Assembly (NCBI GenBank): GCA_963727805.1
Contig: CAVSHF010000003.1
Span: 128,001-192,000, forward strand
Direction of reading: 5' to 3'
Length of the DNA stretch: 64,000 nucleotides
DNA from: an uncultured Nitrospiraceae bacterium
GTDB lineage: Bacteria; Nitrospirota; Thermodesulfovibrionia; Thermodesulfovibrionales; Dissulfurispiraceae
A model generated the notes under the pieces. That model worked only from the letters and a program-made list of their open reading frames with translations. It had not been told where the DNA came from and did no database searches. Shown here one piece after another: positions 40,416-49,560 of the stretch (its first letter is position 1; every line of letters starts with the position of its first letter). The translations under genes and the position numbers were made by a program.

Positions 40416-41845
40416 TATCTTAAGGTTCTTCTTGAGAATGATGAGATAAGGGAAAGCCTCTCCAACCGATTTCGGTTCATCATGGTTGACGAATACCAGG
40501 ATACAAATTCAATTCAGGGTGACATCGCATATCAACTGGCCCGGAATCACGGCAATATTGTGGTGGTCGGTGACGATGCCCAGAGTATATACGGCTTTAG
40601 AGGGGCTACTCATCAAAACATCATGGCGTTTCCCGATAAGTTCGAGGGGTGTCGGATAATCAAGCTCGAAGAAAACTATCGCAGCGCCCAGACTATCCTC
40701 GATGTCGCCAATACCGTACTTGAAAACATGAAACACAAGTACTCAAAATGCCTCGTATCCATCAGGAAGAAACAGGGGCATAAACCACAGCTTCTCTTCC
40801 TCCGCGATTCCCATGAAGAGGCCGAATGGGTCGCCGACAGAATAAAGAAACAGATGGACCAAGGGATTTCCCTCGGTCATCAGTGCATCCTTTTCAGGTC
40901 GATGTACCTCTCGATTGCGGTCCAGTCTGAGCTGAGCGAGAGAAACATTCCTTACGAAACCTATGGAGGGCTCAAGTTTTACGAAACTGCTCATGTCAAA
41001 GACCTGATGGCCCACCTCAAAGTGATATCAAACCCCAAGGATGAACTATCATGGAATAGGGCGCTGATACTTATCGAAAGAATAGGGGCCAAGACGGCTG
41101 ACTCTCTTACCGATGAAATAGTCAAGTATGCGTCTCTTCCGGAAATAATAGGGCATGTCCTCTCAAAGCATGTCAGGAAGCAGAGCCACGGAGAAGGGCT
41201 ATCAAAACTGAGGGCAGCACTGGACATTATAGATTAGGAGAAAGAGGATGTTGGCGACAAATTCGAAGTCATTATGGATTACTACAGACCGATATTGAAG
41301 GACAGATTCGACGACTGGCACTTGGGGCTAAACGACCTTGAGGCATTAAGGCAGATAGCAGCTAGATACAATTCGTTGGAAGAATTGCTTGAGGATTTCG
41401 GCATAGAACCTCCGGAGAGAGGGGTCTGGCGGATCGAACCTGAGACAAAAGAAGAGGGGATGCCTCTCGTGCTCTCTACGATCCACTCTGCAAAGGGTCT
41501 CGAATGGGACTGCGTATTCCTGATGGGGCTCATTGACCGCGTTCTTCCAGGACTTTTTCCCTTGACGACGAGGAATCGATTGAGGAGGAGCAGCGACTGT
41601 TCTATGTCGCTATAACCAGAGCAAAGAACAGGCTCTTTCTGACCTTGCATCATGAAGGGAAAAGGGGGGAATTACCCAGTTCAATAAGATGTCGCGGTTC
41701 GTCGACACTCCAGGACTTTTGTCGCTGCTTGAAACAAAGAATGCCTCAAATACAAAGTCTCGCGAGAAGCGGAGGTAAGTGTCGTGATGGCAAAAATCTA
41801 CGACAAAAAAACCTTCTGCACAAGATCATGGATAATTACAAATGA
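40416..41845 (+). pseudogene. UvrD/PcrA-family helicase, N-terminally truncated and disrupted
   Basis: VDEYQD, VGDDAQSIYGFRGA, LEENYRS, STIHSAKGLEW and (other frame) EEEQRLFYVAITRAK; no Walker A; in-frame TAG 41235-41237; frameshifts near 41550 and 41665. Confidence 0.88.
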
Positions 41846-41947
41846 TGAACATTAAGGCAAGTCTCTTTCGTAGACTTTTGACATACTCCCCGCCCTAAAG
41901 AGACGGGGATTCTGGGTATCGACAGCCACAGCCTGCCGAAGCAGGTC

Positions 41948-43098
41948 TTACGCAGCCTCCTCCCTGAGGCGATGTCCCGCCTCATACTTCCCTGCCGCAA
42001 AGAGTCGCAACCCTTCACGGTGAATATTTACTGATGCATTGGCATCACGGTCATGCTGAATCCCGCATGAAGGACATATCCATTGCCGATCCTTTAACCC
42101 CAGCCCTTCATGAATGTGTCCGCAGTGTGAGTAGATCTTGGAGCTCGGGTAGTACCTGCCTACCTCCACTATGGCACATCCGTACTTCAGGCCCTGCCAC
42201 TTGAGTATCGTGACGAAATCACCCCAGGCAAGGTCTGAGACCTTGCGTCCCCACAGGGCCTTCATCCCCTGCAGACTCAAATCCTCGATACAGAGCACAT
42301 CGTAAGTCTTGGCAAGCTTGGCAGCAGTCTGGACTGCCAATCCCTCCGCATGCTTGCAATTCTGCGGTACAGCCTGGCTAGAGCAAGTCTCGCTCGTCTC
42401 CGACCGTTACTGCCTTTCTTTTTCCTGCTGACATTGCCACAGGACTTCCTGAGTTGTTTGATCTGCTTCATTAGCGGGTGGGGAGCTGAGATCGTAGTCT
42501 TGTCTGAAAGGGTCACAAACGTTGTAAGCCCAAAGTCCAGACCTGCGGTGTTACCCGTCACAGTCTGCCTGGCAACGATTGCTTCGTTCAGAACTGAAAA
42601 TACTATCCAGTAATCCCCAACTGCGTCACGGACGATTGAGACAGTCTTAATCTGGCCTTCCATCGGACGTGAGTTGTGGAATTTGTACGAACAGCGCCCT
42701 ATCTGAATATGGTTGTCATCGAGCAGCTTCCATCCAGCTTGTTTGAGGGTGAAGGATTTGTACTTGACCCTCTTTTTGAACTTGGGCGGAGCGACTCTGC
42801 GGCCAATACGAGTCTTGCACCATGAGAAAAATCGCTGGTAACTCCTGTCGATTCTCTCGATCACGTCCTGCACTGACTGGGAACCAAGCAATTGCCACTC
42901 TGGTCTTACATGCTTTCTCATCAACGCAATCCGATGCTTCAGACGTGACGCAGACAGGTGTTTGCCGAACATCCGGAAGTCCCGACGGTGCAGGGCTATG
43001 CAGTGATTCCATATCTGGCAGGCAACGATGCGTTGCCGGTCCAGACGCTTGTTTCTGTCAGCTGCGTAGAGCTTGTATCTGTAGGCTTGACGCATCAT
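41948..43098 (-). pseudogene. tnpB: TnpB RNA-guided endonuclease, frameshifted
   Basis: HTH N-terminus (AYRYKLY), RuvC-I GLDFG, RuvC-II IEDL, RuvC-III DRDANA; single-base frameshift at about 42332-42336; first Zn-finger Cys appears as Tyr (SSKIYSHCG). Confidence 0.9.
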
Positions 43099-43123
43099 TA
43101 CCTCCTATAGTATCATTTGGTCT

Positions 43124-43525
43124 GTGAATAATTCAACAGACTTGAGACATGGTAGACACTGTGTATTCCATATGCACGTACACTTGGTCTTTGTTGCCAA
43201 ATACCGCCGTAAGGTATTTACTCCAGCGGTTATTGCTACCCTGCAAACAGTCTTCGCAAAAATATGCGAAGACTTTGAAGCAGCACTGGTTGAATGTGAT
43301 GGAGACTACGACCATGTGCACTTGCTGATCAATTACCCTCCCAAGACCTCCGTATCTAGGTTGGTTAACAGTCTCAAGGGGGCATCCTCACGCAGACTAA
43401 AAACCAAACACCCCGGACTGAAGAGATTCTACTGGAAGGGGACTCTTTGGTCTCCCAGCTACTTCGCCGCCAGCTGCGGCGGAGCACCAATCTCTATTAT
43501 CCGGCAATACATCGAAAATCAATAA
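43124..43525 (+). CDS. tnpA: IS200/IS605 Y1 transposase TnpA
   Basis: HLVFVAKYRR, DHVHLL (HUH), LKGASSR, LWSPSYF, catalytic Y in RQYIENQ. Confidence 0.93.
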   Translation: MNNSTDLRHGRHCVFHMHVHLVFVAKYRRKVFTPAVIATLQTVFAKICEDFEAALVECDGDYDHVHLLINYPPKTSVSRLVNSLKGASSRRLKTKHPGLKRFYWKGTLWSPSYFAASCGGAPISIIRQYIENQ

Positions 43526-43610
43526 CTGCCACGACACGGCTTATATCTTCGCCGTGAACAGACAGGGTTTTACGCCGCCCCCTGATAAAAAGGCAGAGCA
43601 TCAGAGTAAT

Positions 43611-43760
43611 ATGTGCGGGAGATATGATCTTCATTCTGAGCCACCTGTGATCCTGAGAGAGATCAGGATTGACCACTTCGCCATCGATTCTAATCCCGGT
43701 TTCAACATCGCGCCCACGCGTAAAATACTTATAGTCAAGGATGAGAGGAAGAAACATTGA
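43611..43760 (+). pseudogene. N-terminal remnant of an SRAP (YedK/HMCES) protein
   Basis: MCGRY...PGFNIAPT..ILIV, then stop after 49 aa. Confidence 0.75.
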
Positions 43761-45670: not shown

Positions 45671-46135
45671 ATGGAACACTATATCTCAGAAGTAACTCGA
45701 AGAGCGATCATTGATCACCTCACAATCTCTGGACTCAAATGGAGTGGCAGACTGCAAGAAGACGAATTCCTTGGTCGTCTTTATGATTTGATCTCTATGC
45801 CCTCGACAGATCGCCGAGTTTGGAATGTAGCTAGTGAAATTATCCAGCACCGGGTGATTTGGAATGACTGGACTGATGATTGGGTATTAACCGATCCTCG
45901 CTTTAACTTGCTATATGAATCCGATGAACGATTCCTGCGATTTCTATGCGAAACAGTTCATCCAGTGGTGCGGCCTAATACATACGAGGCTCTATACTTA
46001 GTAGACTATTATAACGACAAACTTATAAGGGACGGCTGGCGGATAGTTGAGGTGAAGCTCATTTCAGGGAAACCAATCTTCAATCATCAGCAGGCAGATG
46101 AGGCATCCATGATGGGGTCGGCCCTTGACAATTGA
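45671..46135 (+). CDS. AbiJ N-terminal domain 3 (AbiJ_NTD3)-like protein with no effector domain
   Basis: ISEVTRRAIID..WSGRL.E.EFL.RLYDL..MPSTD.R..QHRV..DW.DDWV.TD.RF.L..DE.FLRFLCET.HPVVR..ISGKPIF pattern, recognised from memory of the family. Confidence 0.7.
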   Translation: MEHYISEVTRRAIIDHLTISGLKWSGRLQEDEFLGRLYDLISMPSTDRRVWNVASEIIQHRVIWNDWTDDWVLTDPRFNLLYESDERFLRFLCETVHPVVRPNTYEALYLVDYYNDKLIRDGWRIVEVKLISGKPIFNHQQADEASMMGSALDN

Positions 46136-48956: not shown

Positions 48957-49138
48957 TGTCAACACTTTTGTCAAAACATGTCGAAGAAATAGACACTATT
49001 TATTAGAAATCAACGGAAGTAAAAGAGATAGCAGAAGACACATAACAATATGATAAATAAATGTAATTAGCCCGGCACTTCTATAAACAGGACATTTCTA
49101 CTTTGCCGAAAAGAGGACATTTCTAAATTGCCTTGACA
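48957..49138. mobile_element. Probable ISNCY-type MITE / paired IS ends
   Basis: Begins TGTCAA and ends TTGACA; tandem subterminal AGGACATTTCTA repeats on the right and repeated TGTC motifs on the left; no ORF. Confidence 0.5.
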
Positions 49139-49174: not shown

Positions 49175-49203
49175 TTGACATCATAGCTCAAGTATTATAT
49201 AAT
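49175..49203 (+). promoter_or_regulatory. Perfect-consensus sigma70 promoter
   Basis: TTGACA (49175-49180), 17-bp spacer, TATAAT (49198-49203); AT-rich upstream tandem ATAAAATAATAGT x2. Confidence 0.85.
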
Positions 49204-49209
49204 TAAATC

Positions 49210-49444
49210 AGAGAGAGGGAACTCTCTCTACACCTTTCTCCAAGTAGGGGTGTTTGATACGGGAGAAGGGAGCTTCGAAAGAGGCTGAAGGGGCTGCATT
49301 AGACAGTCCCTGGTTAGCTGAGGGGAATGTAGTTATGGATGGTAGTCGTATCCATCAGCTAACCGAAGAGGTTGCCAGAAGTTTTCTGGCACCCTTTAAA
49401 AAGTGAGGTAGGCGGCTTAAGTGCCATCTACCTCTTGTTTTTTG
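49210..49444 (+). ncRNA. Uncharacterised ~235-nt highly structured non-coding RNA (candidate)
   Basis: Starts 7 nt after TATAAT; six consecutive hairpins (two with GNRA loops) plus a terminator; no ORF in the track. Confidence 0.7.
49405..49444 (+). terminator. Intrinsic terminator
   Basis: GAGGTAGGCGGC-ttaagt-GCCATCTACCTC followed by TTGTTTTTTG. Confidence 0.8.
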
Positions 49445-49560
49445 TAATGCGTCATCTGTTGTTGATTCTATTTATGTCACATTAAGGGGTTAGATGATTT
49501 AAACGCCGTTAAGTGGTGAATTGTGACCCATGAGAATAATCCGCTGCACATGCAATAACA

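Follow-up and report, generated by a model that had tools for sequence, protein, structure and literature searches.

The window, the whole 64,000-nucleotide stretch analysed here from the genome of an uncultured Nitrospiraceae bacterium (G000), contains a gene-like unit of 234 bases. It has a promoter and a terminator of its own and seven hairpins, and belongs to an uncatalogued family of structured RNAs of narrow range. The best explanation, to which we give a probability of about 0.4, is that this RNA titrates a protein, most likely RNA polymerase. To our knowledge, few bacterial RNAs outside Rfam are large, covarying and encoded on their own; several such RNA classes turned out to serve core processes.

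Extent and fold of the RNA gene

An initial annotation had proposed a perfect promoter followed by six hairpins and an intrinsic terminator, and all these elements with their coordinates check against the sequence (Table 1), the terminator stem having been missed by a simple terminator scanner because of its internal mismatch. Perfect TTGACA-17-TATAAT sites occur just five times on both strands of the 3.89-Mb genome, and 15 of the 16 genomic copies of the RNA have a TTGAC -35 box in this place. A different type of promoter, with a TG-extended -10 box, was seen in four other RNA copies. The palindrome TTGA-N9-TCAA over the -35 box is not enriched genome-wide and differs from the GAAC-N4-GTTC boxes ahead of both lexA genes.

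The segment 49205-49450 is predicted to fold with -108.6 kcal/mol (z = -7.8; 0 of 200 shuffled sequences were equally stable), with ensemble pairing probabilities of 0.89-1.0 for the outer pairs of H1-H5 and 0.56-1.0 for H6. The loop of H3 is GAAA in 12, GCAA in three, GUAA in one and GCGA in one of 17 copies. In homologues the stem of H5 continues for three further pairs before the A-rich interior opens, and in this interior (49323-49352) GAA or AAA faces GUA in about 9 of 16 copies, which, read by eye, we take to be a possible bulged-G (loop E) motif. The inner H5 helix ATGGAT/ATCCAT that had been drawn at this place is not retained: its probability is 0.01-0.04, it is complete in one of 17 homologues, and its T49355 is also used by the outer stem.

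Table 1. Features of the RNA gene and of the adjoining insertion sequence end (positions in the window unless a locus is named)
Feature	Position	Strand	Remarks
Sigma-70-type promoter TTGACA-17-TATAAT	49175..49203	+	12/12 match; -35 TTGACA 49175-49180, -10 TATAAT 49198-49203
TTGA-N9-TCAA palindrome over -35 box, possible operator	49175..49191	.	in 9/15 promoters (10 counting TCAG)
Predicted 234-nt non-coding RNA	49210..49443	+	probable start 7 nt past -10 box; end at U-tract
H1, 5' hairpin	49210..49229	+	both-side change in 4/8 pairs; 92.6% of cells paired
H2, 9-bp stem, short inner GTA/TAC helix, variable loop	49233..49270	+	both-side change in 2/12 pairs; 93.1% paired
H3, GNRA-capped hairpin	49271..49286	+	97.1% paired; GNRA in 17/17 copies
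H4, hairpin, 7-nt loop with near-invariant C, A, A, A (columns 93, 94, 97, 99)	49290..49310	+	97.1% paired; both-side change 0
H5, 13-bp basal stem, A-rich interior variable in length and sequence	49312..49364	+	both-side change in 5/13 pairs
H6	49369..49395	+	mid-stem A.C mismatch kept in 15/17 copies; G-C in window copy
AU-rich single-stranded linker, conserved	49396..49404	+	columns 200-205 near-invariant
Intrinsic terminator hairpin and U-tract	49405..49443	+	stem 49405-49434, U-tract 49435-49443; 97.3% paired; loop UUARGU in 14/17
Orphan right end of ISNCY-type element (likely IS1202 family, ISTde1-like)	49085..49138	+	two 23-nt repeats, terminal TTGACA, no transposase left
ISNCY right-end loci	window 49085-49138; L004, L012-L023, L028, L115; G000 C3:2118489, C5:484554

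Is this structure maintained by selection? In an alignment of 17 copies (A3), whose pair counts are inflated because it was fitted to the model structure, 94.8% of the cells are paired and both sides have changed in 15 of 64 pairs. None of 500 shuffles reached this, and slid controls gave 42-53%. An earlier alignment (A2) included the hybrid L077 and gave an inflated 21 pairs. A test that takes kinship into account, based on 8 disjoint leaf pairs, counted 17 compensatory changes as compared to 1.7 expected from random column partners (0/10,000), and stem columns show differences at half the rate of unpaired ones (0.12 versus 0.24). Compensatory changes, which had been named as the check to be made in homologues, are found in the stems; H4 shows no both-side change and hence has no covariation support of its own. 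The suggestion that G-U pairs and GNRA loops point to the + strand was borne out for the G-U pairs, as 100 cells hold G.U and 19 A.C; in addition, folding favours the + strand in 14 of 16 copies. Given this G.U excess and the better folding, the structure is under selection on the + strand RNA. A possible pseudoknot or switch between CTGCATT and AATGTAG did not stand up to the comparison, since the pairing is complete (7/7) in one of 17 copies, reaches 6/7 in one more and 0-5/7 in the other 15, and three 5' bases of it are already locked within the H4 stem.

Covarying stems in homologues and the absence from Rfam support the proposal that the unit is an independent gene, read from the + strand, for a structured RNA that does not code for protein. 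The Rfam search (Rfam 15) gave no match at the gathering threshold in the window or in 20 related loci, and hits at E values up to 10 were sub-threshold noise, the best being STnc400 with 24 of 80 bits over H6 and the terminator alone. ARAGORN detected neither a tRNA or tmRNA in the window nor a tRNA-like domain; the tmRNA gene of the genome is located at C3:2111330. The RNA resembles sponge RNAs of the CsrB/RsmZ type in being multicopy, in its beads-on-a-string hairpins and in the terminator at its end, but these carry many unpaired GGA motifs, whereas at most one or two are present here, in the H1 loop, and CsrA (PF02599) has no match in G000, a 100%-complete genome. Bacterial Y RNAs, the partners of Ro60, share with it a helix with a conserved irregularity (compare the A.C mismatch of H6), but an Rfam match and a tRNA-like domain are both absent, and Ro60/TROVE (PF05731), whose gene is as a rule next to that of the Y RNA, has no match in G000. 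Resemblances to Y RNA, SRP, hammerhead, attC and REP were not supported. ProQ was not found in G000 either. Searches of the literature, several of them dominated by unrelated papers, found no description of the family, and the main text of PMC11109978, as far as accessible, mentions neither Nitrospira nor Thermodesulfovibrio; motif tables in its supplements or in other papers could contain the RNA.

The window copy contains a 23-codon open reading frame (49335-49406) after a purine-rich stretch, and in about half of the copies frames end at the same stop close to the terminator, as would be expected of an mRNA for a small peptide. However, start codons, lengths and frames vary between copies, the H5 and H6 loops carry insertions and deletions whose lengths are not divisible by three, and no open reading frame on either strand is conserved across the copies; this reading is most improbable.

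Concerning transcription, 5-19% of the sequence words occur in eight metatranscriptomes. One of four RNA libraries compared with the locus yielded a single identical contig of 210 nt (49277-49486, depth 2.7) that extends 43 nt past the terminator, and the three others contain homologue pieces over the RNA and also over the promoter, the insertion sequence (IS) end and the next gene; such contigs give neither transcript ends nor levels. Transcription of a 234-nt RNA appears highly probable. The expectation of strong expression had been derived solely from the promoter sequence, and the library contigs do not bear it out.

Distribution and genomic surroundings

How widespread is the RNA? BLAST searches found two further copies in the window's genome and more in relatives. 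From 15 copies a covariance model (R1) was made; run on all 68 genomes of the taxonomic family, it identified 16 full-length copies spread over 10 genomes, namely three in G000, four in G003, two in G004 and one each in G001, G007, G013, G033, G059, G105 and G107; 15 of these 16 match the model by construction, and the independent ones are the copy of G105 and one metagenome copy found via an exact pattern. A match in G026 and a second one in G033 were left out of the tally as terminator-only. Carriers are confined to two genera of Nitrospirota, both known here from metagenome-assembled records: the genus of the window (g1; G000 and 4 of 7 others) and a second genus (g7; 5 of 10). Matches of the terminator type alone (21-25 bits) were found in 4 of 150 genomes of the order and none in 150 genomes of the phylum, samples that overlap the family set, and the RNA was not found in viral contigs, phages or plasmids. 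Sequence-pattern matches came from Nitrospirota records, two of them Dissulfurispiraceae. Pairwise identity among copies is 63-98%, and 68-84% between the window copy and the others. A weakly supported tree does not unite the three G000 copies and places four of the five g7 copies in one clade within those of g1, a pattern that suggests old duplication or transfer.

It could be argued that such a unit is functionless or acts purely as DNA, a cassette of promoter, palindromes and terminator spread by duplication. Its patchy range (10/68 genomes) would fit, as would the state of the copies in G003, where three further copies are damaged, so that 3 of 7 are deleted or broken. The compensatory changes, the one-strand excess of G.U, the GNRA loop in 17 of 17 copies and the retention of the promoter among copies as diverged as noted above argue against it, and we regard it as very unlikely.

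According to the initial annotation an IS-end-like element directly abuts the gene. The element itself is real and matches the right terminus of a complete ISNCY element in G003 (L167; 90.6% identity, 53 nt) whose transposase passes NF033594, but it ends 36 nt upstream of the -35 box and is outside the RNA gene. On either side of the intact relative there is a direct repeat of 17 bp, a target duplication, which extends up to a -35 box. Repeats of 15-17 bp are given for the ISTde1 subgroup of IS1202 in the part of a preprint available to us (bioRxiv 10.1101/2022.12.17.520857), and the 17-bp repeat would fit this subgroup. Removing two chance look-alikes and one left end from 20 matches left 17 right ends, 8 of which have an exact TTGAC 16-18 nt downstream (6 of 14 among loci picked for the IS end alone); of the other ISNCY ends in G000, 3 of 5 have TTGAC at 15-16 nt. 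Since the same ends precede -35 boxes at unrelated loci, the adjacency is better explained by insertion next to promoters than by an RNA belonging to the element, and these positions suggest an IS group that may target sigma-70 promoters. No paper on promoter targeting by this IS group was found among those judged by title or the start of the abstract.

These observations bear on the proposal that the RNA serves a mobile element as its guide or scaffold, similar to omega-RNA or bridge RNA, or is part of the adjoining IS. In 5 of 15 copies an IS-like end is found 10-36 nt ahead of the -35 box; one copy has an IS110 gene at a distance of 1.5 kb, and the window copy has IS605/TnpB at 6 kb. However, the RNA is located outside the IS, whose end faces away from it, has its own terminator and contains no variable guide of fixed length. 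Neighbour scans did not place it, as would be expected for omega-RNA or bridge RNA, inside an element at a fixed position beside TnpB, IscB or an IS110 recombinase, and no transposase or nuclease is common to the loci. A target-site duplication around the cassette was not found at a consistent position in 18 loci, and the absence from phages, plasmids and viral contigs also speaks against such an origin. With the IS end explained by insertion at promoters in general, the mobile-element or guide reading is largely refuted, and we consider it quite improbable.

The copies retain promoter and terminator but not the genes around them. Flanking genes differ nearly everywhere and no protein family is common to the loci; a riboswitch or leader was ruled out on this ground and because the downstream gene faces either way. 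The g1 copies reside in IS-rich regions with shared scraps of cargo (uvrD-SRAP-ligD, an AbiJ fragment, DUF6933), none of which is constant. That the RNA is an RNA antitoxin or a defence-linked RNA whose protein partner was lost or moved would be in line with the toxin-antitoxin and Abi-like cargo around g1 copies, which includes PIN, RelE, DUF6933 and, 3 kb upstream in the window, an N-terminal AbiJ fragment. Yet no protein family recurs at the loci, no conserved toxin open reading frame is adjacent or antisense, and DUF6933 occurs in 5 of 68 genomes, just 2 of which have the RNA. Tandem repeats as in type III antitoxins are missing, as is a conserved small open reading frame on either strand. 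An antitoxin or defence-linked RNA thus appears improbable.

The AbiJ fragment is an isolated gene for AbiJ N-terminal domain 3 (PF18860; window 45671-46135), and an 85% identical copy is found near a deleted RNA copy in G003. Control by the SOS response was rejected, as GAAC-N4-GTTC boxes are missing from the promoter of the RNA, although one G003 copy is preceded by a lexA-uvrD-SRAP-ligD block and the window copy by a part of this block. Both lexA genes (L180, L181; G000 C5:887790, C3:2171385) have a GAAC-N4-GTTC palindrome in their promoters, likely the LexA box of the lineage. In the window the uvrD-SRAP block (40482-43760) is broken by an IS200/IS605 element with TnpA at 43124-43525 and TnpB in two frames (41948-43098); the intact order lexA-uvrD-SRAP-ligD is present in L166.

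Neighbouring 6S-like genes

The sole recurrent genetic link of the RNA is to a 6S-like gene. The housekeeping 6S is encoded at C3:383618 (82 bits), and 6S is present in 63 of the 68 genomes. At 2 of 5 loci the element upstream of some RNA copies matches the middle of RF00013 with 29-30 bits, short of the cut-off of 46.4, and is, judged by its sequence, a diverged 6S-like paralogue and not the housekeeping 6S. This paralogue was found in 25 of the 68 genomes; a long hairpin usually comes after it, and it stands directly ahead of 3 of 11 full g1 copies (G000b, G003a, G003b). In G000b the RNA starts 10 nt after the 6S-like gene and has no -35 box of its own, a spacing with which both RNAs would be one transcript. 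Upstream of G003d a remnant of the long hairpin is preserved, and a further G003 locus (L028:3260-3520), in an island beside tRNA-Pro, contains a hybrid in which a 6S-like RNA is fused to H6 and the terminator. From the neighbours in G000b and G003, the remnant and the hybrid we infer a probable ancestral cluster in g1 of 6S-like gene, long hairpin and RNA. A 6S-like gene directly upstream is lacking in 13 of the 16 full copies, including the window copy, which has none in its vicinity either, and is found at none of the five g7 copies; of 30 6S-like loci, one holds the RNA.

Apart from the canonical gene G000 has at least four 6S-like genes (C3:2325489, C3:991769, C3:109044, C3:437882). Three of these four are followed by a hairpin of about 100 nt with conserved closing strands, and two have in common a conserved sequence upstream, possibly an operator. 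Moreover, a 6S-like element is found in the leader of an rRNA operon (G000 C1:52716-52940), between a perfect promoter and boxA/16S, in one of the three G000 operons and in four relatives (L110, L111, L112, L125).

The RNA itself differs from 6S (SsrS, RF00013) and its paralogues, such as 6S-2 of B. subtilis. All are stand-alone structured RNAs of about 200 nt with a sigma-70-type promoter. However, 6S is a single rod with a central bubble that mimics the open promoter, whereas the window RNA consists of seven separate hairpins, the longest of 53 nt, does not match RF00013 up to an E value of 10, and is patchy in distribution where 6S is near-universal. Pairing between the RNA and 6S or 6S-like RNAs was clearly beyond shuffles in none of 15 combinations.

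Possible modes of action

How could such an RNA act? It is likely that the cassette of promoter, hairpins and terminator yields a stand-alone RNA of 234 nt, which would then act in trans by binding and titrating a protein with its folded surface and not by pairing with mRNAs. The fixed unpaired bases are structural (the GNRA loop, the H4 loop, the A.C mismatch, the A-rich linker), no long seed is conserved, and the long loops vary most, which suits a protein-recognised fold more than a base-pairing seed. Thus, of the functions offered by the initial annotation the protein sponge or scaffold is the best remaining one, on anatomical grounds, and we consider action through protein binding probable. 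RNA polymerase would be the most likely single partner, an assignment that as such is tentative. The recurrent link to a 6S-like gene speaks for this partner, whereas the lack of a 6S-type rod and the large share of copies with no such neighbour speak against it. 6S acts by titrating the polymerase (PMC4211561, available in part), and Ms1 and CoRP are RNA-polymerase-binding RNAs other than 6S (PMC11077062, likewise available in part). Like the RNA described here, Ms1 and CoRP are lineage-restricted, long, structured intergenic RNAs, CoRP having homologues in a single genus only (PMC11077062). Compared by description, CoRP differs in its length of 516 nt and its conserved synteny with a tRNA, whereas the window RNA has 234 nt, is multicopy and lacks synteny (PMC11077062).

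The main alternative is a set of sibling sRNAs that depend on Hfq and either pair with mRNAs via a loop or the AU-rich linker or sponge Hfq. Hfq is encoded in G000, the 3' end of the RNA, a terminator with a U-tail, suits Hfq, and the best conserved part is the 3' hairpin with the U-tract and the preceding AU-rich linker. Moreover, multicopy sibling sRNAs are well known, and the Qrr, AbcR and OmrA/B sRNAs are likewise dispersed paralogues with a promoter and a U-tailed terminator (PMC4211561, in the part available). On the other hand, the window RNA is longer than these sRNAs and almost fully paired, its larger loops, in H2 and H5, are the most variable ones, and no conserved seed or target was found. 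Among 3,153 crude start regions no mRNA target was better than shuffled segments; in this crude comparison, made without accessibility, the best duplexes of nearly all of 12 segments did not surpass those of shuffled ones, and no clear top target was common to the three paralogues. We consider Hfq-dependent siblings rather unlikely.

For the preferred reading, titration of a protein and most likely of RNA polymerase, a more far-reaching version can be imagined, in which the RNA would represent a new class of RNA-polymerase regulators. With its seven hairpins it would be the partner of extra 6S-like genes and move together with them as an all-RNA cassette, adjust the transcription of the host in trans and exchange 3' modules with the 6S-like gene, as seen in the G003 hybrid. 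This version is speculative and, taken as a whole, doubtful.

In these bacteria the RNA is multicopy and lineage-restricted, with a link to 6S-like genes whose number has grown to one canonical and at least four diverged copies in G000. As an accessory gene it would have been duplicated and moved within IS-rich variable regions. Should the RNA bind the polymerase, the few RNA types known to do so (6S, Ms1, CoRP) would gain a further member, and polymerase-binding RNAs could then be accessory, duplicated cargo.
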